Assembly: GCA_964016885.1 (NCBI GenBank)
Contig: OZ024745.1
Location: 38,006,001 to 38,070,000, forward strand
Direction of reading: 5' to 3'
Length of the DNA stretch: 64,000 bases
Origin: Eledone cirrhosa
Lineage: Eukaryota
Position 1 is the stretch's first letter; every line of letters starts with the position of its first letter. The notes beneath the pieces are model-generated. The model worked only from the letters and a program-made list of their open reading frames with translations. It made no database searches and was not told where the DNA came from. The position numbers and the translations under genes are program-made. This document shows positions 5,586 through 62,793 of this stretch, piece by piece.

Positions 5586-5705
5586 TGGAAATGTTAGACC
5601 CCGACGGCAGAGCTCTAACATTTTCCTATTACCCACTCTACTGCCCTAAGTATTGAGTACTCTGGTGCGTTATGATCCATCTGGTTCCTTACCACACCTT
5701 CGTTA
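5586..5705. mobile_element. Short TA-tract-inserted repeat family A, partial copy
   Basis: Shares ccccgacggcagagctc and ccactctact.ccctaagtattgagtactctggtgcgttat..tccatctggttccttaccaca with 46765-46939, and in reverse complement with 12052-12247 and 11113-11305. Confidence 0.8.
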
Positions 5706-6484
5706 TATATATATATATATAATTACACACGTGTGTGTGTGTGTATATGTATGTGTATGGGTGAGTGCTTTGTGTGCACGTGTGTATCATGCAGATTTGT
5801 TTTTATGATATTTAAAAATACATATTCCTTTTCTCGGTCTCGTTTCTTTCTTCTTTGTCTCTCCTCCAATCGTTCCTCTCTTTATATTGTTATTTATATC
5901 TATATTGTTTGAGCGGGAGCAATATTCTGTATCGATTTAGCCAAATGCATGCATAGAGGAATCATTTAAGCTTTCTTTATTATTCATATACTTATTCCTT
6001 CATTTATTTATATTCATATCTCTATAACCATTTACCTACTATTACCGACATTGTCAAAATGTATGGTCCTCAAAATCCTCGTTTATGACCAATAACATTG
6101 TAGTCACTAATGCATAATACCCGATTTGTGCTGGTTCTTTTGTCTGATGTCACATTTGACTATGTATAGATAGAGAGAAGGAAAGAGAAAGTGTGAGGAA
6201 AATAGATAACTAAATTTCGGTTTGCAGAAAGAGAATGCAGAGTGGCCGCAGTTGAAATACCTATATATATATCTTAGTGACATATATAATATTATGTACA
6301 CACACACACACACAGACCCCCCCCCCCATATATATATATATATATATAAATTTGAAAACGTGGTGCAGAATACAAGATGTATGGCCAAGTATATTTAAAG
6401 CTTTATGGGATTATAGTCCAAAGAATGAGTGGTAATAAAACTGTTTTATCAATGAAATGATTTACTACAATAAAACTTGGTTTA

Positions 6485-8008: not shown

Positions 8009-8339
8009 AAAGGAGAAAGAAGAGACGATTATTAAGAAGAAAAATATTTTTTTTTCCTTTTTTATTTCTTTCTCTCTTTTTTTCTGGGTTAGAAAATGAT
8101 TAAAACGAAATGTTTTACTTTGTGTGAAGTGTTAAGGTAATAGTTGATTTATTTATTATTTAAAAATTTATTTATCTATCTATATATTTATCTATCTATA
8201 TATTTAATAATTGTCTATTACCGGTTTCAGCATTTTTAAGCATTATCAAATGGTAGTGATATGTATTAGTGTGGTGTCGCACATGTTGAAGAGAAGGTGC
8301 AGAAAGAATAATGTTATTTACAAACAAGGTTTATGAAGT

Positions 8340-8435
8340 GAAAAGAAAAAAGAAAAAAGAAAAAAGAAAAAAGAAAAAAGAAAAAAGAAAAAAGAAAAAA
8401 GAAAAAAGAAAAAAGAAAAAAGAAAAAAGAAAAAA
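8340..8435. repeat. (GAAAAAA)n heptamer tandem repeat
   Basis: Directly visible. Confidence 0.95.
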
Positions 8436-8734
8436 CGGTCGAAATGTAGAGCATAAAAGGTCAATGTGAAAGAAAAAATAATGTTATTTACAGGCATAGT
8501 TCATGAAGTTAAGCAGATCAAAATGTGTTAATATAGCAAGAGTGCTTAGTTGATCCATGATTCCATGAAGGAGGCAAATGGTGGACTGAGGTTTGATATG
8601 ATTTCCCTTTTTAGAGAGTCAATATGCAGGGGGAAGCAATTCTTGCTGGATGATATTTAATTTATTTAAGAAAAAGGATTAGGTAGGGTGTGAGGGAGGT
8701 AACTCTTGTAAATGTTTGATTGTTTGTTGCAGGT

Positions 8735-9268
8735 TTAGTTTGGTCCGATTTTTAGTGCATTAAGTAGGGGTTGGAATTTGTTAATGAAATATGTTTCCTT
8801 ATTAGTACGGTGGATGAAGGTAGCGTTGTCTATGAATTTGTAAATGGCGAACATTTTAAGGTTTGGATGTTGGTTGTGTGCACAATTGTCGATATGTTCA
8901 CTAAATGTAATCTTTCTGTATTCCTGTATTTTAATTTGTGATTTATGGACGGTCATACGTTGACAGAGGCTATTTTTTGTCTGTCCTATGTAGTGCTCTT
9001 GACAACCTGAGCAGGTCAAAACAAAGATTAGGTTTTCAGATGCACATGTAAAGTTGTGTTTAACTGTGAAATGTTGTCCTTGTTTAAAATGGAATGATGA
9101 GCCTTCTATTAGATTTATGCATATGCCACAGTTGGCCCTTCCGCATTTTGTTACTGTAGGGTTCATTGTGATGGTTTGTTGGATTTTGGCTTGTGTGAGG
9201 ATGTTTTTTATGGATTTAGGCTGTCTTTTGCTCTTTATGATGTTGTGTGTTTGGAGGATTTTGTTCAT
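8735..9268 (-). pseudogene. PLE GIY-YIG endonuclease fragment
   Basis: LIFVLTC..C...YIGQT motif, conserved Arg and C-terminal E..FI....PLLN. No RT lies upstream, so the element is truncated. Confidence 0.85.
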
Positions 9269-9479
9269 TCTTGGGTCTCTTTTTAGTAAAGGAATGTTCT
9301 GGAGGATGGTGTCGAATGCCTCATTGTTGAGGGGGTTGTGTGTGGAGATATATGGTAGAGATTTTTGTTGCGGTTATATATATATTCTAGTCGATCGACT
9401 TTCGTCAAATCGGACCGAGAAAACTATGTTTCCGTTGGTCTTTCCAATTGCTAATACTATCTATCGGTCGCAACTCCAG

Positions 9480-11049: not shown

Positions 11050-11112
11050 TGTGTGTGTGTATATTTAAATGTGTGTATATAAGTGTTTATATATATATTT
11101 ATAAAACAAACA

Positions 11113-11305
11113 GGCTGTGGTAAGATACCAGGCGGACCATAACGGACCAGAGTACTTAATACTTTGGGTAGTAGGGTGGGTAATAGAAAAATAGTCAGGA
11201 CCCCGACAGCTCAGCTCCGGCCGTTTCGACAGCTAGATCGGAACAGTTCGGATCTACCTGTCGGAACGTCCGGAGCTCAGCCACCGGGGTCCTGACTCTT
11301 TTCCT
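11113..11305. mobile_element. Repeat family A copy with internal hairpin
   Basis: tgtggtaag...agtacttaatactttgggtagtag, then hairpin tcaggaccccg...cggggtcctga. Confidence 0.75.
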
Positions 11306-11374
11306 ATATATATATATATATATATATAGTTTGTGATTTAAATTCAGGAATTTTATATTCTTTGAATGAAAAGA

Positions 11375-11458
11375 ACCTTCTGACGAGAATCTCTCTTTGC
11401 AACGAAGGCCGTATGGTCTCCGTTTTATTTTTGGGATTCGAAACCGATCGGTAAAGGT
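11375..11458 (+). ncRNA. Type-I hammerhead ribozyme, intact core
   Basis: acctt-CTGACGA-gaatctc...gggattc-GAAA-ccgatcg-GTA-aaggt. Stem I 5 bp, stem II closed, palindromic stem III ACCGATCGGT, GUA cleavage site. Confidence 0.9.
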
Positions 11459-11857
11459 AACTATAGTAGGTAAAGTCAATTTTTAAAAATTTATTTTGAA
11501 ACTTTTTCATTATTTACTAAACCTTGTTTATATTTGTTCTGGCTCGTTAATTTATTAACCCGCCATTGAACCACACTGGCACTTGGTTGGACAATACATG
11601 CGTACCTTGGCGCCTTGTGCGTGAAGGGACGTATTTCATATTACTACTACCTCCACAAACGTTGAGAACAAACCGGGTCATTCCGACTGCTGCTGACAAC
11701 AGCGGTGGCTAGTTTGACCTACCTCCTTTTGCCTCTATCTTTACTACGGCCCTTGATAAACCTGTTCTACATCATCCACTCTCATCCCAGGAACAGTCTT
11801 TGATAGCGCTAGTTTGTGATTTAAATTCAGGAATTTTATATTCTTTGAATGAAAAGA

Positions 11858-11941
11858 ACCTTCTGACGAGAATTTCTCTTTGCAACGAAGGCCGTATGGT
11901 CTCCGTTTTATTTTGGGGATTCGAAACCGATCGGTAAAGGT
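11858..11941 (+). ncRNA. Type-I hammerhead ribozyme, second copy
   Basis: acctt-CTGACGA-gaatttc...gggattc-GAAA-ccgatcg-GTA-aaggt. Confidence 0.9.
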
Positions 11942-12009
11942 AACTATAGTAGGTAAAGTCAATTTTTTAAAATTTATTTTGAAACTTTTTCATTATTTAC
12001 TAAACCTTT

Positions 12010-12051
<42 letters not shown>

Positions 12052-12053
<2 letters not shown>

Positions 12054-12243
12054 CGAAGGAAATGTGGTAAGGAACCAGATGGAACATAACGCGCCAAAGT
12101 ACTCAATACTTAGGGTAGTAGAGTGGGTATTAGGAACAAGTATGACCCCGACGGCAGAGATCAAGTCGTTTCGACGGCTAATTCTGGACGCCAGAATTAG
12201 CCGTCGAAACGGCTCGAGCTCTGCCATCGGGGTCATACTTGTT

Positions 12244-12247
<4 letters not shown>
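12052..12247. mobile_element. Repeat family A copy with ~110-bp hairpin
   Basis: taggaacaagtatgaccccga...aattctgg-acg-ccagaatt...tcggggtcatacttgttccta, flanked by (TA)n. Confidence 0.85.
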
Positions 12248-12616: not shown

Positions 12617-12790
12617 TATATCACACCCCGTCCCTCGGACAGAGTACTCTGTCAACATTGGACCTGTTTATTTGTTTACGAAAAATCTACCTTATAAATA
12701 TATACACACATATATATATATCACACCCCGTCCCTCGGACAGAGTGGTCTTTCAACATTGGACCTGTTTATTTTTTTACGAAAAATCTAC

Positions 12791-12848
<58 letters not shown>

Positions 12849-12925
12849 GTAGAGTTGTTTTCGTAAAAGAATAAACAGGTCCAATGTTGACAGATCACTC
12901 TGTCCGAGGGACGGGGTGTGATATA
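12617..12925. repeat. ~75-bp unit: two direct copies plus one inverted copy, interleaved with (TA)n
   Basis: tatcacaccccgtccctcggacagagt... at about 12619 and 12718; reverse complement at about 12849-12924. Confidence 0.85.
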
Positions 12926-14205: not shown

Positions 14206-15864
14206 TGTATTGTTCAGGTCTAATATTCTTGGTAAGCCCCTAGGGAAACAGAATTCAATATCTATAATAGAATAAATGTAAATAATTTCATATATTCATT
14301 GCTTAGAGCATAATTTTGATGTTTCAGCAAAACGAATTAAGTCGGTCTGATATATATTATAAACAAAGAGGGTGTCGTAAGATACTAGGTAGACCAGTTC
14401 AGATCTAGCAGCCAAAACGGCCGGAGCTGAGCCGTCGGGGTCCTGAATCTTTTCATAAATACATTTATATACACAGAAAATACTTATCAAAGCTCCCCGC
14501 AGTGGAACTCTAAAAAAATTGTTGGGAATTAAACCAGTTAGTCTCATAGCCACGAGATAAAATTTGTTCGTAAGAATATGCAGATATATAGGCGTCGATG
14601 GGTTGAGTCCTTAGAACGTCGATAGACCGCTTTGCAGTATTCGTTCCGTCTGTCTTCCCTTTTAGTTCATATCCCGACGAGGTTTACATCCATTCTAGGC
14701 TGAGAAAGAAAGTGCCAGCCTAGTAGTGGGGTCGTTTCTTCCTCTATATCTCTTTCTATTTTTTTCATTCTCTCACTCTCTGTTCCTTCTCTAGGAAAAA
14801 TATTCTGCGTTCATAATTAGAGAGGAGATGGTCTCCGCCAGATTTTTAAAAAATGCCCCCGAAGCGCGCTATGTTAATCTGGCACCATTACGACTCCCTC
14901 TGGTGTTATGGGTACATATATGCATACATATGCAATAATATGTGGAAGGTTTATAAGGCGGTTAAATGTCGTTAGAACATATTTTGTTCTGGATTTTGTT
15001 CTGGCTCTCTGCATTTGGAGTTCAAATCCTAACGAGCTCAAATTTACATTCTATTCTTCTGAGGTCGATATGTAAAATACTAGTTCAATGCTGCAATTGA
15101 CTGTTCTTCTATATCTCATTTTCTATTTCTCTGGAAAAAATCAGATGTTTCAACCCGGAGAGAGATGTTCTCCACCAGAACTAAATTCTCAAGTCAGTCC
15201 GAATGACAGAGTTACAGATTTCTAGGCAAATATCACGAAAGAAATACGAAAAGCATCTCTTTATTGAAGAAAGAAATTTAAATTGAATTAACCCTTTCAA
15301 TACTATATTTCTTACTAAAAACACTTACTATGATTTTCAAATAACCTTGAAACTAATCAATTTTTTAAAAGGTAATATGATGTTTGAAACACAACTTAAA
15401 AAATGTTCCCATAAATTCATGACGGTATGGTTTAGATAAGTATAGTGTTTTTGTATGAGACGGTTCCAGGTGGTTCAGTATCAAAACTGTTTATGCAACT
15501 TACAGCCAAAATGATGTTGACAGATACGGTAGCCATGCCAATCTAAAATCGTTTATGATAATAATGGTAGTTTTGGAAATGGCAGCAGCGGCTTCTATGG
15601 TGGCAGTGATGGTGTTGGCAGATGGAATTATTGATAATAGAATAAACAACTCCTAATAACACAGAAGTATCGTCTCCACAGTGGGTGACTTTTTAATGAC
15701 CAACTATCTCATCTGTTGTATAAATGAATGACAGCCAATAGGCAGAAACTGTAAGTAAGGAATAATTCAAGAGATGAACCTTACTGGTTGATGATGTCTC
15801 TCAATTATAACAATAATTATGTGTGTTATTATTGTTATAACCATTATCACTATTATTTGTTGAA

Positions 15865-27800: not shown

Positions 27801-28434
27801 TCATTAGTCTCTTCCACCAAGCCCATTTGCTACCATAGAATCAACATAAAATATTGACGAAAGTTCTTTAAGACAATTTTGAATAAACTGTTTATTTCCT
27901 CATACGCCGGCGCCGGATGTGCAAGTTATTCCAATATATATGTTTTTACAATTTTTTTCCAAAACTCATGCACCCCCCCCCCTATATATATTCATATGGC
28001 TGTGACAGGATGACAGCTTATCATATTCATAGCAAGATACTTCTATGTTTATAATAATTAAATATATATATACGTTTATATGTAATTCCATTATGAACTA
28101 CGCTATGTTAATGGTACTTCTTATATATATATATATATATAAAAACAAATAACGAAACGAAATTAAATTTCGTTTCGTTTGTAACTCACTTTTGTATGAC
28201 TGACGCTTAAACAATTAAGTTAAAAATGTACATCCGCATATGTATACTGAAATACTAGTATGCATATGAATACACACACGTATACATATGTAGATGTACC
28301 GAGTCTTTCACTGGTCACTTTACTGTGAGTATCCAGCTATTCTGTATGTAAACACACAGACAAACCGGTTTTTAGAGTCATACTGGTTTTTGAGGAAACA
28401 CCTTTCCTCTATTCTCCAGAAAGCCAGACAAGGA

Positions 28435-28477
28435 ACATTGAACTAGTTTCGTTGTTGTTACAACTCATCAGCAATAT
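28435..28477 (-). ncRNA. Type-I hammerhead ribozyme
   Basis: atattg-CTGATGA-gttg-taacaa-caac-GAAAC-ta-GTT-caatgt. Confidence 0.85.
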
Positions 28478-28900
28478 TTACCTATCTTCCGGCCTTTCTG
28501 GAGAATCGTAAAAGCACATATCGTTATATGCTTTTTCTATGAAAATTAGTAGTGGGCAGACCAATTTGCATAGAGTGTGAGTACGTACCAGTTCAACGGA
28601 GACGATAAAAACAAATAACGAAACGAAATTAAATTTCGTTTCGTTTGTAACTCACTTTTGTATGACTGACGCTTAAACAATTAAGTTAAAAATGTACATC
28701 CGCATATGTATACTGAAATACTAGTATGCATATGAATACACACACGTATACATATGTAGATGTACCAAGTCTTTCACTGGTCACTTTACTGTGAGTATCC
28801 AGCTATTCTGTATGTAAACACACAGACAAACCGGTTTTTAGAGTCATACTGGTTTTTGAGGAAACACCTTTCCTCTATTCTCCAGAAAGCCAGACAAGGA

Positions 28901-28943
28901 ACATTGAACTAGTTTCGTTGTTGTTACAACTCATCAGCAATAT
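28901..28943 (-). ncRNA. Type-I hammerhead ribozyme
   Basis: Identical motif, 466 bp from the previous copy. Confidence 0.85.
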
Positions 28944-29308
28944 TTACCTATCTACCGGCCTTTCTGGAGAATCGTAAAAGCACATATCGTTATATGCTTT
29001 TTCTATGAACATTAGTAGTGGGCAGACCAATTTGCATAGAGTGTGAGTACGTACCGGTTCAACGGAGACGATAAAAACAAATAACGAAACGAAATTAAAT
29101 TTCGTTTCGTTTGTAACTCACTTTTGTATGACTGACGCTTAAACAATTAAGTTAAAAATGTACATCCGCATTTGTTTTTATCGTCTCCGTTGAACCGGTA
29201 CGTACTCACACTCTATGCAAATTGGTCTGCCCACTACTAATTTTCATAGAAAAAGCATATAACGATATGTGCTTTTACGATTCTCCAGAAAGGCCGGTAG
29301 ATAGGTAA

Positions 29309-29351
29309 ATATTGCTGATGAGTTGTAACAACAACGAAACTAGTTCAATGT
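29309..29351 (+). ncRNA. Type-I hammerhead ribozyme (inverted arm)
   Basis: atattg-CTGATGA-gttg-taacaa-caac-GAAAC-ta-GTT-caatgt; palindrome AACTAGTT. Confidence 0.85.
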
Positions 29352-29569
29352 TCCTTGTCTGGCTTTCTGGAGAATAGAGGAAAGGTGTTTCCTCAAAAAC
29401 ACCAGTATGACTCTAAAAACCGGTTTGTCTGTGTGTTTACATACAGAATAGGTGGATACTCACAGTAAAGTGACCAGTGAAAGACTTGGTACATCTACAT
29501 ATGTATACGTGTGTGTATTCATATGCATACTAGTATTTCAGTATACATATGCGGATGTACATTTTTAAC

Positions 29570-29646
<77 letters not shown>

Positions 29647-38959: not shown

Positions 38960-39017
38960 AAGGCTCTGATACCATCAACACTATACACACAGAGCTGGCA
39001 AATCTAAGAACTAACTA

Positions 39018-39073
39018 ACTGCCTGATGAGGTCATAGCCATTCAATGGCTATCATCGAAATATATATAGCAGT
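39018..39073 (+). ncRNA. Type-I hammerhead ribozyme, intact core, in a solo pLTR between (TA)n tracts
   Basis: actgc-CTGATGA-ggtc-atagccat-tca-atggctat-catc-GAAA-tatat-ATA-gcagt-a-AATAAA. Confidence 0.9.
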
Positions 39074-39114
39074 AAATAAAGGATTATGAGTTCGTGCAAT
39101 TGACTTATGTTTCG

Positions 39115-45970: not shown

Positions 45971-46764
45971 TATATATGTATACATTTAGTTTCCTGCTGT
46001 CTTTTTCCTTCTCTCGCTCTCCCCTCATATTTTCCTCTTCCTACCATTATGCTTCGCTCTCCTTCAATCCTAACACAAACAGCATAACAAAGAGAACGAA
46101 ATATTTCAGATAAATCATATACGTGGCCATATATATGAATATACCCACACATCCCGGATAACATATATATCTATAAGTATATATATCTCTTTATTTATTT
46201 ATTTCTGTCACTTTGTGTATATATATATGTATGTATATTTATATGTATATATATATGTATGTATATGACAGGTATACATCGAAGATGTAGCCGCAATATA
46301 GCAGATACCATCGAAATATTTAGGCTGATACAAAGCACTCAATGGTGCGAAATGTTTATACATTTTCGTCTAGAGTAAACACAAAGTTAAGTAAATGTGA
46401 GACATACTACAGCAACGCTAAATACAAACAGGTCGAAGGCTAAGCTGGACTATCTCGAATAGATATGAATCAATAGAACTCGATAAAAATCTTCGAAAGT
46501 ATTTAGGGACTTCGGGAAGCTGCACCACTATGTGCATATATTTCCCTTGTTTCAAATATGAGGATCTCCGCTGTTTGGAGGAAAAATTGTCGGTGAAAAG
46601 TACTTCTGTTTTCTTATATCTGTCCCCGTGTCCGACGATGGGCTCGTTTAAAAGTGCCTCTTCCAATATATAGTGGTGGCCATAAGTGCACTTCGAGACC
46701 AATAGGCCCACAAACAAGTTAAGTAAATGAACCTTTGTTTATACTATATATATATATATACATA

Positions 46765-46939
46765 TAGGAAAAAGTATGACCCCCCGACGTCACAGCTCAA
46801 CCCGCTTTGACGGCTATTTCCAGAAATAGCCCTCGAAACGGCTTGAGCTCTGCCGTCAGGGTCCCACTCTACTACCCTAAGTATTGAGTACTCTGGTGCG
46901 TTATCGTCCATCTGGTTCCTTACCACAATTCCTTTGTTA
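46765..46939. mobile_element. Repeat family A copy with hairpin
   Basis: Related to 12052-12247 (shared hairpin; flanking segment in reverse orientation). Confidence 0.8.
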
Positions 46940-46960
46940 TATATATATATATATATATAC

Positions 46961-54210: not shown

Positions 54211-54340
54211 ACATATATAGATATTACTCCAGTTCCTGAGTGAATTAACAACCCAACAAGGAACTGGGCATATCAGAGTATTGACAATATTATACACCTA
54301 AACAACATATGTACTTGTTGTCTATACCATACTAATTCAA

Positions 54341-54395
54341 ACTGCCTGAAGAGGTCACAGCCAAAGATGGCTGTCACTGAAATATATATAACAGT
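54341..54395 (+). ncRNA. Type-I hammerhead ribozyme, same family as 39018-39073
   Basis: actgc-CTGAAGA-ggtc-acagcca-aaga-tggctgt-cact-GAAA-tatat-ATA-acagt-AATAAA. The first stem-I pair is a mismatch. Confidence 0.8.
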
Positions 54396-54553
54396 AATAA
54401 ACGAAGCTAAATTTTAATCTTTTGACCTTTATTTAACTTTATTTTACACTACTCCGGAGTAACCAAACCAACCTGCGCACTTTGTCGAGTGCTCCAGCCT
54501 GCATACTGAGGTGTTGGTATACAACCAACATAAACTCAAAATCTATCTATCTA

Positions 54554-54648
<95 letters not shown>

Positions 54649-54974
54649 ATAATAATAAATTTGATGACTAAAATCCAAAGAGGATAAGGATAAATATATA
54701 TCAAATATATAAGAACCGTAGAGCAAATATTTATTAAAATAACAGATTAAAGTTCAAGCAAAGAATCGGTGCTTTCACCCTTAACGGGATATTCTGAAAT
54801 CACCATATATATATTTTGAGATTGAAACAGCGCGGTAAGAGTAAATATAGTAAGTACAGTGAACTTTTTAAAATTTATTTTAAAACTTTTTCTCTATTTG
54901 CTAAACCTTGATTATATATATATATTTATATATATATATATTTATATATATATATATTTATATATATATATATT

Positions 54975-55729: not shown

Positions 55730-57359
55730 ATATTAATAAATGGAAACTATATTTATAAAACCATATTTATTTTATTATATATATTTCAAGGGCAACCAAG
55801 GCAAATTATGGTGCGCTCTCATCAGATAAAATACAGATTTGTTTTATAAATAAATATTGACATACCCGGAAAGAAGACAACCTTAACGGTTGGAGCTTCC
55901 TGGATAGTGGAGATAATATTTTATTGAGAGTAAGACAAAGTTATGAGTGAGTATGCAAATGAGTGTCAGAAAATTTGAAAAGATAACGGTTTATTTAAAT
56001 TAAACTGTTGGAAGAAGAGGAAATGTAAGGGAGAGAGAAAAGAAAAAGAAAAAGAAAAGGAAGGAGAAAGAGAGGAGAGGAAAGAAAAAACGATTATGCA
56101 TAGTGATAGTGATAGTCAAGAGTGAACGAAGAAATAAATATTAATGGAAGAATATAGAGCGTAAATATATCTAAGTGAAAGAAGAAGTGAAAGAAGAAAT
56201 AAGATTAACGTGGAAGAATAATATTATAATTACGTTGTGATTATAATATTTATAATGATATGTTGAAAAAATAAAAATAAAAAATAAAAAATAAAAATGA
56301 AAGATTAAAATTTACCTTAATATTAAAAATTTAATTTAATATTAATATTAATATTAAAAATTAAAAATTAAAATTAAAACAGAAGTATTTATATTATATT
56401 AGGATGTATTAGTAATAATATATTCGTTTAGATGTGTATGTTATGGATTATGAATTATTTAAATAAATATATAGTATTTTACATTAGAGAAAATCTAGTA
56501 TAGTTTATTTGATTAAAGTAAGTTTGTCAAAATTATATTTATTAATAGTTGTAAGTCAAAACTTAAACATCCAAATAATTCCAAATTTATGAAAATTTAC
56601 GAGAGTTTGCAAAGGAATAACTACTTAATTATAGTATAAAAACAGTAAGGAAGTATAAAAGAAGTTAGAACTGATTTTTTAAGAACTCAAATGACTCCAA
56701 GGATACATAAAGACCCTTCAAAAAAACTTCTTTCAAAAAAAAATTATTTTTTTAATTTTTCAAAAATTTTTTATAAATGTTATAAAGTTAAAAAAATTTA
56801 TCTTAAGAATATAATTAAAACATAAACCATATGTTATGTTATAAGAAGTCATAAATTTATCTTAAGAATATAATTAAAACATAAACCATAGGTTATTTTA
56901 TAAGAAGTCATAATTGTTATAAAGTTAAAAAATGTATCTTAAGAATACAATTAAAACATAAACCATAGGTTATTCCACATATATATAAAAATCATATGTT
57001 ATTCCACATATATATAAATATTTGGATATATATTAAAAATGTTTGAAGATATAAAATATTGGAAGATATGAAAATAATGGTTTTTTATATCTTTCAAAGA
57101 ATTTTCTAAAACCTTCAGAAAGTCTTTCAAGGAAAGTTTTTCTTAAAAGAATTTGAAATAGTCATATAAAAAGGTTATAATCAATTGATAAGTGTAATAA
57201 TATAAAGTGTATTTATGAAGTAGAGATAATAGAAAGTAAATTAAATATATATGAATTATATATAGATATTATCTGAAGGATGAAGTTGTAGGTGGTTGGA
57301 TATAGAAAATATTATGTAAAGGAGGTTAACCATATATTATATTTTATATATATATCTAC

Positions 57360-59161: not shown

Positions 59162-59773
59162 ATGTCTAATGATAAAATCTCATATCGGGTCGGCCGTCAC
59201 CCGGGTAAAAAAGGGCCGCGTCCCTCAGAGAGGAACCAGACTGGGGTCGAAAAATCAGCTAATGGTTCAAACCTTCCCATCACTTCGGAGCTGGAGACCT
59301 CCCATAACCGGAATACTCCTACTGTTGGCCCTCCATGCTCACCACCAAGAAATCCAAAGAAAAAGAGAGAAAAATGGTCAAGGGAAGATAATAAAGAAGT
59401 CCTTGAGGCTTTCTACACTGCCATGTACTACTCATCAAATACATCGAATACAGAACAGACATATATCAACTGGAAAAAGAAACATCCCGAAAACAGAGGC
59501 TATATTGACAGTAACAAACTAGCCAATATACGAAGAAATATTGTAAGAAAAAAGTTACTAACTGATATAGAAATTGATCAGATCAAGCTATTAGCACAAA
59601 GTCAGCGAAGGGAAAATGAAACATGTGTCAGTGAAAACGAGGTAAATTGTAACACTTCGAATCCCAGGGTTGGGGCGGAATCACTGGCAACAGAACAAAT
59701 TAAAGAAAGCATCGAAAAAGTGGGGGCATGCATGCTCAAGATGAAACTCCAAATGAAAATAATGAGATCGTAA
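59162..59773 (+). CDS. N-terminal part of the R4/Dong ORF (upstream of the frameshift)
   Basis: RxKWSREDNKEVLEAFY...W...HP...LAN.RR.I..KKLLT..EI, the Myb-like N-terminal pattern of R4/Dong. It parallels NWTKELNRTVMQCY in the second element. Confidence 0.75.
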   Translation: MSNDKISYRVGRHPGKKGPRPSERNQTGVEKSANGSNLPITSELETSHNRNTPTVGPPCSPPRNPKKKREKWSREDNKEVLEAFYTAMYYSSNTSNTEQTYINWKKKHPENRGYIDSNKLANIRRNIVRKKLLTDIEIDQIKLLAQSQRRENETCVSENEVNCNTSNPRVGAESLATEQIKESIEKVGACMLKMKLQMKIMRS

Positions 59774-62700
59774 ATGATAAAGAAATGAATGAGAATGAAC
59801 TTGCCAACTTGAAGGATGAAATTATGATCGAATGGATGAAAATGAAAGAATCTGACATGGGGCAACGAGACACCCTCCCTAAGATCCAGAACTCCAAACA
59901 GAACCAAAAGATAATACACAAGACTAACATAATTCTCAAAAACATTATCATCACAAACAAACTAAACATTACTGATTTAAATCATCTCTATTATGCATCG
60001 GCTAAAGTCACCACTCACTTATGTGGAGTGAAGATGAAAAAACAAAGGAATTCCCACAAGAAATCTACTTGGCAAGAGAACATCACACGCCAAATAAACC
60101 TTCTCCGATCTGACATAGAAATTTTAACAAACTATAAAGTAGGTGAACATGTTAAACAAACTAAACTTAGAAAATTGAAAAGAAAGTACAGTATAAAATC
60201 AACAAGTGACATAGACATGCTGATAGAAATAATCAAGCAAAAAGTGTCGGCCAAAGCTGCTCGTATAAGGCGCTTTGAAAAACGATCTAGATTCTATAAG
60301 GACAATAATATGTTCAAAAACAACCAAAGAAACTTCTACAGAAAAATTGGTAAGTCAACAATAACTGCTAAATCAATACCACCCAAGGAGGAAGTGCAAG
60401 ATGGCTGGGAAAAGATCTGGGCCGAAGAAAAAGTTCATAACATACATGCCCCATGGATAGACAGACAAATGAAAGATACAGCTCACCTTGAGGAACAAAT
60501 ATGGGAAAATATAACAGTTGAACAGTTGCGCTTGGTTCTAAGAAAAACCAGCAAATGGAAATCCCCAGAAAAAGACAAAATACAAAATTTTTGGATAAAT
60601 GCCTTCACAGAGTCTCATGAGCTGTTAGCCCAACTTTACAATGAAATAGTTAAGGAGCCAGAAAAGATACCATCATGGCTAGTTAACGGCATTACATTCC
60701 TGCTTCCGAAGAATGATGAGACAAACAATCGCCAAAATTACAGACCGATAACTTGCTTGACCACAATGTATAAAATTTTAACATCAGTCCTAACTGAATA
60801 CACATATGACCACCTGATAATAATTGACCTATTTCCCATTGAGCAGAAAGGGTGTAAACGAGGCTCATATGGCTGTAAGGATCAGCTTTTGGTTAACAAA
60901 ATGATACTGGAAGATTGTCATAATAGACACAAAAATCTATCGATTGCTTGGATAGATTATAAAAAAGCATTCGATAGTTTTCCACACAGTTGGATTGAAA
61001 AATGTTTAGAGATTTTCAAAATATCCCCCGTTGTCAGGAGGATTTTGTCATTCAGTATGAAGACATGGAAAACGACACTCCTTTTGAATAGTGAAACAAA
61101 ATCACTGGAAGATGGAGAAGTTAATATTAATTGTGGAATTTTTCAGGGTGACTCTTTATCACCGCTTTTATTCTGCATCGCACTTATACCATTAAGTAAA
61201 ATGCTCAATGAAACAAAACATGGATATAAAGTCTATGACAAAACCATTAATCACTTGTTCTACATGGATGACCTGAAACTATTTGCAAAAAATGATGAAC
61301 AATTGCAAGGGTTATTATCCACTGTGGAGCAGTTCAGTGATGACATTAAAATGGAGTTTGGACTAGATAAATGCGCCAAAGCAACGTTCACCAGGGGAAA
61401 GCTGCTGAAGAGTTCAGACATTAATCTTGATCGGGGGAACGTGATAAGAGAACTTGATCAAGAAAAAACTTACAAATATCTAGATGTTTGTGAAGGAGAC
61501 GGAATCAAGCACTCGACAATGAGGGAAAGGATAAGGAAGGAATGTTACCGCAGAGTAAGAGCAATCTTAAGAACGGAATTGAATGCAAGGAATAGGATCG
61601 ATGCTATAAACACGCTTGCCATACCAGTAGTAACCAACAGTTACAATGTCATCAACTGGTCAAGCACAGAGATCCGTAGGCTCGATACAAAAATTCGAAA
61701 ATTCTTAACCATGTACAGACTGCATCACCCTAAGGCAGATATAGATAGAATATATCTCCCTAGGAAAGAAGGAGGACGTGGGTTAATCCAGTTAGACAAT
61801 GCAACAATTGGATTATCTACATATCTAAGGGAATCACATGATTGGATGATCAAACTCGTTTTGAAACACGAAAGCATCAAAAGATCATATTCCATTACAA
61901 AAGATGCACAAAGATACAGTAATGGACTACAAATTTCAGAAGTCCCATTTACTGCTGAAATGGAAAACACAGAAAAAGCAAAGCAGGTACAAGTAACTGC
62001 AAAGAAAGAACTGCTACAGAAACTGGCTAAGAAATGGCAAGAAAAGCCTCTGTATGGAAAATACCCAGAGCGAGCTAACAATCCTGATGTTGACAAAACT
62101 TTAACCCATCAGTGGTTGGCATCCTCTGGACTGAAATCGGAGACTGAAGGACTGATTATATCAGCACAAGATCAGTGTCTGCCAACAAAAAAATACCAAG
62201 CCAACATAATAAAAAATGGATGCAGCCCATTATGCCGTGTATGCAAAAAACAACCAGAGACCATTGACCATATAATTTCAATGTGCAGTCCTATAGCTCC
62301 AACCGAATACCTAAACAGGCATGACAGAGCTGCACAATACATACATTGGATAATGTGTAAGCATTTTGACCTGTCCCATCAAAAGAATTGGTGGGAGCAT
62401 CAACCACCACCCATACTTGAAAAAGATTACATCTCAATCTTGTGGAACTTTAGCATCCAAACAGACCGAAAAATAGATGCAAATAGACCTGATATAATAT
62501 TGAAGGACTTTAAAAAGAGGGTATGCCTGCTAATTGATATGTCTGTTCCAATAGACAAGAATGTATCTATAAAAACATTTGAAAAATTGAGCAAGTATAA
62601 GGACCTGGAGATGGAAATTGGAAAAATGTGGAAATTGAGAACTAAAACAATACCAGTGGTTGTAGGCGCTCTGGCAATGATACCTAAGGGGTCTAATGAT

Positions 62701-62793
62701 TACTTATCGCGAATCCCAGGAAACCCGCGAATAGGAGAAACGATAGTACTAATGGGAACTGCCCATATACTAAGGAAGATTCTGTCAATATAA
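59728..62793 (+). CDS. Reverse transcriptase-CCHC-RLE endonuclease polyprotein (1021 aa open frame)
   Basis: NYRPITCL, EQKG, IDYKKAFDS, GIFQGDSLSP, FYMDD, GLDKC; zinc knuckle CRVC...HIISMC; RHD; PDII...LLIDMSVP...KLSKY. Confidence 0.95.
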   Translation: MHAQDETPNENNEIVNDKEMNENELANLKDEIMIEWMKMKESDMGQRDTLPKIQNSKQNQKIIHKTNIILKNIIITNKLNITDLNHLYYASAKVTTHLCGVKMKKQRNSHKKSTWQENITRQINLLRSDIEILTNYKVGEHVKQTKLRKLKRKYSIKSTSDIDMLIEIIKQKVSAKAARIRRFEKRSRFYKDNNMFKNNQRNFYRKIGKSTITAKSIPPKEEVQDGWEKIWAEEKVHNIHAPWIDRQMKDTAHLEEQIWENITVEQLRLVLRKTSKWKSPEKDKIQNFWINAFTESHELLAQLYNEIVKEPEKIPSWLVNGITFLLPKNDETNNRQNYRPITCLTTMYKILTSVLTEYTYDHLIIIDLFPIEQKGCKRGSYGCKDQLLVNKMILEDCHNRHKNLSIAWIDYKKAFDSFPHSWIEKCLEIFKISPVVRRILSFSMKTWKTTLLLNSETKSLEDGEVNINCGIFQGDSLSPLLFCIALIPLSKMLNETKHGYKVYDKTINHLFYMDDLKLFAKNDEQLQGLLSTVEQFSDDIKMEFGLDKCAKATFTRGKLLKSSDINLDRGNVIRELDQEKTYKYLDVCEGDGIKHSTMRERIRKECYRRVRAILRTELNARNRIDAINTLAIPVVTNSYNVINWSSTEIRRLDTKIRKFLTMYRLHHPKADIDRIYLPRKEGGRGLIQLDNATIGLSTYLRESHDWMIKLVLKHESIKRSYSITKDAQRYSNGLQISEVPFTAEMENTEKAKQVQVTAKKELLQKLAKKWQEKPLYGKYPERANNPDVDKTLTHQWLASSGLKSETEGLIISAQDQCLPTKKYQANIIKNGCSPLCRVCKKQPETIDHIISMCSPIAPTEYLNRHDRAAQYIHWIMCKHFDLSHQKNWWEHQPPPILEKDYISILWNFSIQTDRKIDANRPDIILKDFKKRVCLLIDMSVPIDKNVSIKTFEKLSKYKDLEMEIGKMWKLRTKTIPVVVGALAMIPKGSNDYLSRIPGNPRIGETIVLMGTAHILRKILSI

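Follow-up and report, generated by a model that had tools for sequence, protein, structure and literature searches.

A short non-coding element with two hammerhead motifs lies between (TA)n runs in a stretch of 64,000 nucleotides of Eledone cirrhosa DNA (contig OZ024745.1), hereafter called the window. It raises the question of whether such an element spreads as a self-cleaved circular RNA, as repeated DNA, or as the passenger of another retroelement. The initial annotation had described a direct repeat, a unique stretch and a second direct repeat, bounded by (TA)n, and our analysis confirmed this anatomy. The repeats (11327-11525 and 11810-12008) measure 199 nt each, are 98% alike with 3 differences, and are spaced by 483 nt, with (TA)n on both sides. 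In BLAST, the repeat match extends to 11533/12017 if one extra T is allowed. The unique stretch between the repeats covers 11526-11809 and has 284 nt, or 276 nt if its start is placed at 11534. The element is better read as 1.4 head-to-tail copies of a 483-nt unit with a GC content of 39.8%, namely a 5'-truncated piece followed by a full unit. Judged by analogy, such a partial tandem has a form typical of Penelope-like elements (PLEs). It had also been stated that the element has no credible ORF, and indeed no ORF of at least 100 codons was found inside it, the longest stop-to-stop frames wholly within it having 74 codons on the plus strand and 81 codons on the minus strand. A diverged 3' fragment of the same family had been placed near 54815-54912 and was recovered with slightly wider limits (Table 1). 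No tRNA genes were found in the window, and the results of a sigma-70 promoter scan were set aside as irrelevant to an animal-type genome.

Table 1. Features of the element, its flanks and its diverged relative, in window coordinates.
Feature	Position	Strand	Basis or remark
(TA)n run, 5' side, likely target site	11305..11328	.	Sequence; TA 11327-11328 common to run and element
Upstream repeat (pseudo-LTR), 5'-truncated copy of the unit's 3' part	11327..11525	+	Repeat comparison
Hairpin upstream of hammerhead 1	11342..11367	+	Fold; twin hairpin at 11825-11850
Type I hammerhead motif 1	11375..11458	+	Predicted cut after 11453
Predicted 483-nt cut-to-cut monomer	11454..11936	+	Predicted RNA, from motif positions
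AU-rich hairpin past cut site	11464..11525	+	Fold
Non-coding spacer, rest of the 483-nt unit; multicopy	11526..11809	+	Begins with GTTTATAT
Downstream repeat (pseudo-LTR)	11810..12017	+	3' terminus between 12012 and 12017
Type I hammerhead motif 2	11858..11941	+	Predicted cut after 11936
(TA)n run, 3' side	12013..12052	.	Sequence
Diverged 5'-truncated family member	54812..54917	+	83% alike; 3' half of hammerhead and common 3' end before (TA)n

Each repeat carries one hammerhead motif. The cores read CTGACGA (at 11380 and 11863) and GAAA (at 11440 and 11923), and a GTA site is present in both repeats. Helix I has 5 bp (ACCTT/AAGGT) in both motifs, helix II has 7 bp around a 39-nt loop in motif 1 and 8 bp around a 37-nt loop in motif 2, and helix III is in both cases the 10-nt palindrome ACCGATCGGT. 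In motif 1, these parts occupy 11375-79/11454-58 (helix I), 11380-86 (core), 11387-93/11433-39 (helix II), 11440-43 (GAAA) and 11443-52 (palindrome). A descriptor scan returned 5 matches in the window, 2 of them here and the other 3 within an array near 28-29 kb; 30 block-shuffled windows together gave 1. Rfam gave no match of any kind in the window at the gathering score, and no hammerhead around the element up to E=10, where it returned only 3 miRNA matches, driven by (TA)n, with E of 3-10. This lack of a hammerhead match suggests that the motif is not of the canonical shape modelled by Rfam. The canonical shape, with a helix I of about 6 bp, a helix II of about 4 bp and a contact between loops 1 and 2, is not the one seen in the element, which has 5 bp, 7-8 bp and a loop of 37-39 nt. 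The two hammerheads had initially been called intact, with a canonical CUGACGA/GAAA core. The term intact holds at the level of sequence, with this core, the 5-bp stem I, the GUA site and the palindromic stem III present in both; the overall shape is without Rfam match.

The ribozyme fits the PLE type in its 5-bp helix I, its helix II of 7-8 bp, its G10.1-C11.1 pair and its small palindromic helix III. PLE hammerhead variants are described in PMC4209133 as having a short helix I, a long helix II, G10.1-C11.1 and a palindromic helix III, and ribozymes of this type are reported to cleave weakly and as dimers (PMC4209133; review PMC6765202). Pattern scans gave 0 matches in metagenomes and 0 in viral contigs. 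A single metagenome match to a looser pattern was rejected as due to chance, having 63% GC and no further similarity. The element exemplifies a hammerhead shape with a long structured loop 2 that escapes Rfam.

Words of the element occur in 6 of 11 sequencing runs, under three organism labels, none of the runs being on record as RNA. We compared one permuted unit (11526-12012) at 80% likeness with 4 of the 11 runs (X1, X2, X9 and X6), leaving out X5, a smaller run of organism A; the copy and 3'-end tallies given here all come from reads or contigs of these runs in this one comparison. The matches comprised 905 contigs in X1, 3 contigs in X2, a single, weak contig at depth 2 in X6 and, in the raw RAD DNA of X9, 2151 reads of 12.5 million records. 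The summed contig depths in X1 (about 1,400 to 198,000) are not copy numbers. All 29 bins of the unit are covered in X1, X2 and X9, and 16 of 29 in X6. The spacer bins have about 115-510 reads in X9, where bins 11832-11967 have about 495-710, and this depth indicates that many copies normally include the spacer. The head-to-tail joint (12008 to 11526) was found in all four runs, in X9 with 62 reads from 13 starts. The 483-nt unit is multicopy, and its head-to-tail joint is present in DNA.

A further 40 X9 reads have a variant joint, with a 3' end matching the 54.8-kb fragment; these reads represent a second subfamily, which the fragment resembles. Read depth dips at 11645-11695, and 66 X9 reads diverge after 11597 into other sequence (88% agreement) that may belong to a sister family or to a longer parent element. 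The dip and these reads suggest that the family may descend from a longer element. The stretch 11526-11640 has a higher depth, and in one contig the unit gives way to terminal (TA)n after 11641. Piles of X9 reads at 11549/11552, 11827/11832 and 11964/11971 were considered as RNA ends and rejected: they fall on AATT sites and are therefore an artefact of the restriction library, and most loose ends there were discarded.

To describe the variation among copies, we used the 40 best-supported of 103 variants, with local fold windows chosen by the analyst. None of these best 40 of 103 falls in the core, helix I or helix III. Twenty of the best 40 lie at paired places, and 18 of these keep the pairing, compared with 53% expected from 5000 local permutations. 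Two-sided pair changes number 4 among the best 40, against 0.65 expected (permutation P=0.0012), a value to be read with the non-independence of changes under subfamily descent and with only 2 of the 4 pairs seen on one contig. These two lie in the hairpin before the ribozyme (11825-11850), on one X2 contig, and the other two are unphased pairs in the spacer (11601/11631 and 11695/11700). An insertion after 11930, carried by 142 of 589 reads, breaks the palindrome and would allow a 4-bp hairpin instead. Under the modelled folds, the conserved core and the pair-keeping changes point to selection on the RNA. At the 3 places where the repeats differ, the alleles are likewise found in other copies and hence do not discriminate between a circular and a linear template.

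The 3' end of the element lies 75-80 nt past the predicted cut site, where TATAT forms a microhomology with the (TA)n target. The motif where copies end, GTTTATAT, is formed by the first letters of the spacer; since this motif of the unit continues into the flanking (TA)n, TATAT belongs to both. At the 5' junction, TA is common to element and flank. Both copies in the window are dispersed and 5'-truncated and have the common 3' end before (TA)n, and 11 X1 contigs go into (TA)n after 12008. We conclude that the unit is probably a non-autonomous passenger of PLEs, present in many copies, with one hammerhead motif per unit and, at this locus, 1.4 copies inserted in (TA)n.

In the mechanism that we propose for this passenger, tandem copies would be transcribed, and a PLE protein with reverse transcriptase and GIY-YIG domains, provided in trans, would nick (TA)n DNA. 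Within the RNA, copying would begin at UAUAU, beside the base of the AU-rich hairpin and 75-80 nt beyond the hammerhead cut. The PLE enzyme would then copy through one unit and stop 0.4 unit into the next, which would produce the partial tandem. The hammerheads would likely cut slowly, as a dimer held by the 10-nt palindrome, releasing 483-nt monomers. Since the cut site is uninterrupted in the DNA copy, its template cannot have been a cleaved linear monomer, and we slightly prefer uncut tandem RNA to a re-ligated circle in this role. PMC8557442 describes PLEs with partial tandems, 5' truncation and (TA)n targets. For an anole PLE, PMC11167929 places the start of copying within the RNA, 111-118 nt into the ORF, and the hammerhead cut at 26; subtraction of these positions gives a start-to-cut distance of 85-92 nt. 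In the experiments described there, insertion did not depend on hammerhead cutting, and none of the RNA-seq reads started at the cut. The same source describes the anole start site as not homologous to the cut DNA, which counts against the microhomology proposed here. The element provides a compact substrate for asking if the hammerheads of PLEs cut in vivo and if a circle serves as template.

A circle would have a much larger role if the two hammerheads cut efficiently, the monomer was ligated into an abundant 483-nt circular RNA, and rolling-circle reverse transcription of this RNA made the 1.4-unit insert. We regard this explanation, which builds on the double cleavage and the circularisable monomer inferred in the initial annotation, as possible but doubtful. 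The predicted cut sites, after 11453 and 11936, are exactly one unit apart, structure-keeping variation is also found inside the spacer, and circles have been shown for coral, mussel and axolotl retrozymes according to PMC7229834. One X2 contig (513 letters, depth 13.8) moreover holds the whole 483-nt unit closed on itself, with 6 differences, the cycle being read by the analyst as 483 letters plus a 30-letter overlap. However, X2, which bears another organism label, is marked 'DNA?', and tandem or partial-tandem DNA closes the same cycle, which is therefore no evidence for circular RNA; the joint is also present in raw DNA reads. DNA itself contains both the junction of GTA with AAGGT and the joint from one unit to the next, so that neither junction reads nor divergent RT-PCR, as proposed in the initial annotation, can distinguish a circle from tandem transcripts or from DNA. 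The circular monomer is predicted to be mildly stable, with 56% of its bases paired, and folds only mildly better than shuffled sequences (z of -1.9, with 4 of 100 shuffles as good). Among the Xenopus retrozyme dimer elements reported in 10.64898/2026.07.22.740005, 1 of 9 cleaved in vitro and the other 8 did not. The poor cleavage described for PLE-type ribozymes (PMC4209133) and the dispensability of cutting in the anole PLE (PMC11167929) also speak against an efficient double cut.

Predicted folds of the 686-nt RNA bear on how such cutting would take place. The double-hammerhead fold has -165.4 kcal/mol compared with -155.8 kcal/mol for two monomer ribozymes, and the palindrome pairs between the ribozymes (helix III) with a probability of 0.97, the ribozyme being predicted to fold better as a dimer than as two monomers. 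The minimum of this RNA is at -172.4 kcal/mol, with the double hammerhead 7 kcal/mol above it and a helix I probability of at most 0.01. The monomer ribozyme lies above the minimum by 2.1 kcal/mol in short transcripts, chiefly owing to pairing of the core with helix III, by 5.5 in the full unit and by 4.0 in the circle. One reason for the low helix I probability is that ACCUU at the element's 3' end (11521-25), a predicted decoy partner, competes for the 3' strand of helix I (AAGGU). The decoy helix is imperfect in the 54.8-kb fragment, and a ribozyme switch is therefore speculative. We consider unlikely the joint reading of these results as an active 483-nt circular RNA parasite in more than one species, with its structure selected along the whole length and a built-in switch. 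In this speculative switch, ACCUU would copy the 5' strand of helix I, and the ribozyme-off hairpin would present the UAUAU start for pairing with nicked (TA)n DNA. If such a parasite were real, a PLE enzyme would have in it a minimal natural donor RNA, with which one could examine whether PLE transposition involves hammerhead cutting and circles in any way.

The frequent head-to-tail joints in DNA reads might also be accounted for if a PLE end gave rise to the unit on a single occasion and the unit now spread mainly as a DNA minisatellite, by unequal crossing-over, with the hammerhead as baggage. Li et al. do propose local tandem amplification from PLE ends (10.64898/2026.07.22.740005). This origin is distinctly unlikely here, however, given the dispersed, 5'-truncated window copies with the same end base before (TA)n, likewise found in the 11 X1 contigs, and given the conserved core and pair-keeping changes that point to selection on RNA.

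The passenger reading calls attention to other retroelements in the window. A GIY-YIG remnant at 8735-9373, a 212-codon C-terminus with CX4CXXC, lies about 2 kb from the element, and its sole longer relative among 973 candidates carries a reverse transcriptase (RT) domain. The remnant shows that PLEs with a C-terminal endonuclease, apparently of the Neptune/Nematis type by the description in PMC8557442, occur in this genome. The PLE remnant as a whole (8190-9390, minus strand) consists of the GIY-YIG end followed by a 3' region, ahead of (TA)n, that contains a degenerate hammerhead-like motif, GAAACCGGTA, around 8215-8260. No autonomous partner with a common repeat was found within the 64-kb window, where the best DNA match between the element and the neighbouring PLE remnant has 32 nt (E=0.014). 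An open ORF of 1029 codons with an RT domain lies at 59704-62793 (plus strand). Its C-terminus looks like that of what we take to be an R4/Dong-type non-LTR element.

Mobilisation of the unit by such a non-PLE retrotransposon is very improbable. The 1029-codon ORF is in the same window, and LINEs or PLEs are named as candidate helpers in PMC7229834, but neither a common 3' end nor a tail of the poly(A) type was observed, and the partial tandem, the hammerhead in the repeat and the 3' end inside the unit are PLE traits by the descriptions in PMC8557442 and PMC11167929. The initial annotation had itself named as an alternative a one-off internal deletion of a coding PLE; by such a deletion, or by a local duplication, the element would be part of a dead coding PLE and would not lead an independent existence. 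In spite of the depth dip and of the 66 reads that leave the unit, this is scarcely credible and, as a one-off event, already largely refuted, since the whole length of the spacer is covered in 3 of the 4 runs with many variants, the joint is found in all 4, the whole unit with 6 differences occurs in a run of another organism label, and the element has no similarity to two retroelement proteins from the window that were compared with it (best E=0.49). An origin of the whole family by deletion would fit the passenger explanation.

Other repeats in the window are of related interest. A second non-coding hammerhead repeat family at 28139-29575 has a 466-nt unit in about 2.2 tandem copies that are 99% alike, with motifs on the minus strand at 28471 and 28937 and an inverted copy with a motif at 29315. 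It has (TA)n at both ends and no ORF of 100 codons, and its outer ends differ by 74 nt of the unit. Its motif is compact, with a helix I of 6-7 bp, a helix II of 5 bp, the palindrome AACTAGTT and a GUU site, and its layout is a textbook PLE-style tandem-plus-inversion. The presence of a second hammerhead repeat family within the same 64 kb points to such elements being common here. At 39017-39083, 54340-54404 (read by eye) and 55777-55833 (minus strand), there are small, single hammerhead-like motifs with a helix III of ATATATAT; the first two are 82% alike, and all three end shortly before (TA)n. A dispersed family of about 200 nt (11100-11305, 12053-12247, about 5620-5720, 14360-14455 and 46740-46960) has at its end, ahead of (TA)n, a long hairpin (z of -9.4 for the DNA fold), and its copies at 11100-11305 and 12053-12247, 75% alike, flank the element on both sides. 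Long inverted repeats of 94-97% likeness (9928-10404/10502-10975 and 33808-34158/34667-35017) and a 100-nt tandem-plus-inverted set centred on (TA)n (12617-12925) have the same layout as PLE-type insertions.

How, then, does the element compare with described systems? Like the metazoan non-LTR retrozymes presented in PMC7229834 and 10.64898/2026.07.22.740005, it is non-coding and below 50% GC, is built of head-to-tail units a few hundred bases long, each with a single type I hammerhead, has two consecutive motifs, and occurs in a genome with PLE remnants. The type I motif, the two motifs one unit apart and the short non-coding unit agree with the broad definition of non-LTR retrozymes in Li et al. 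2026. Its 483-nt unit is above the range of 150-450 bp given in PMC7229834 and inside that of 51-972 bp given in 10.64898/2026.07.22.740005. Helices I and II have 6 and 4 bp in canonical retrozymes as described, whereas the element has 5 and 7-8 bp, a 37-39-nt loop and no Rfam match. In contrast with metazoan retrozymes, it has only 1.4 units at this locus, and its cleavage and circles are predicted. The kinship with these retrozymes that had been suggested for it is thus borne out by the non-coding, hammerhead-bearing, multicopy 483-nt unit, but not by the anatomy, which is PLE-like, nor by the ribozyme, which is of the PLE dimer type.

The element also has the traits of a non-autonomous PLE, that is, a pseudo-LTR partial tandem with 5' truncation, a PLE-type hammerhead and a fixed 3' end in (TA)n. 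As in the PLEs with pseudo-LTR hammerheads described in PMC4209133 and PMC8557442, a group compared here together with non-autonomous PLEs such as MRC1, a 5'-truncated copy precedes the full unit, the hammerhead is near the 3' end, helix III is palindromic, and the target is (TA)n without discernible target duplication. According to PMC8557442, MRC1 groups with Chlamys elements, most of which are without canonical hammerheads. A further, optional feature of PLEs is a tail of 30-40 bp from a second start site, to which the higher depth over 11526-11640 and the contig with (TA)n after 11641 may relate. Unlike the hammerhead PLEs of these accounts, the element has no RT or GIY-YIG ORF, as an autonomous PLE would have, and no inverted copy at its own locus. 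It also lacks the extra base between positions 9 and 10.1 that PMC4209133 describes as common in PLEs. The anole Poseidon element PAc (PMC11167929) resembles it in 3' ends just past the cut (85-92 nt compared with 75-80 nt here), a stem-loop and AT-rich targets. PAc is described as coding, with an AC-rich start lacking homology to the target, whereas the element ends in TATAT matching (TA)n. We conclude that the element is likely a retrozyme in the broad sense, outside the strict sense of PMC7229834 as that source sets it out, and that it adds one family to the described class, the literature having been compared by topic and not by sequence. Retrozymes are viewed as PLE derivatives in 10.64898/2026.07.22.740005. 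The occurrence of both sets of traits in one small element supports this recent view, by which animal retrozymes derive from PLEs as non-autonomous elements.
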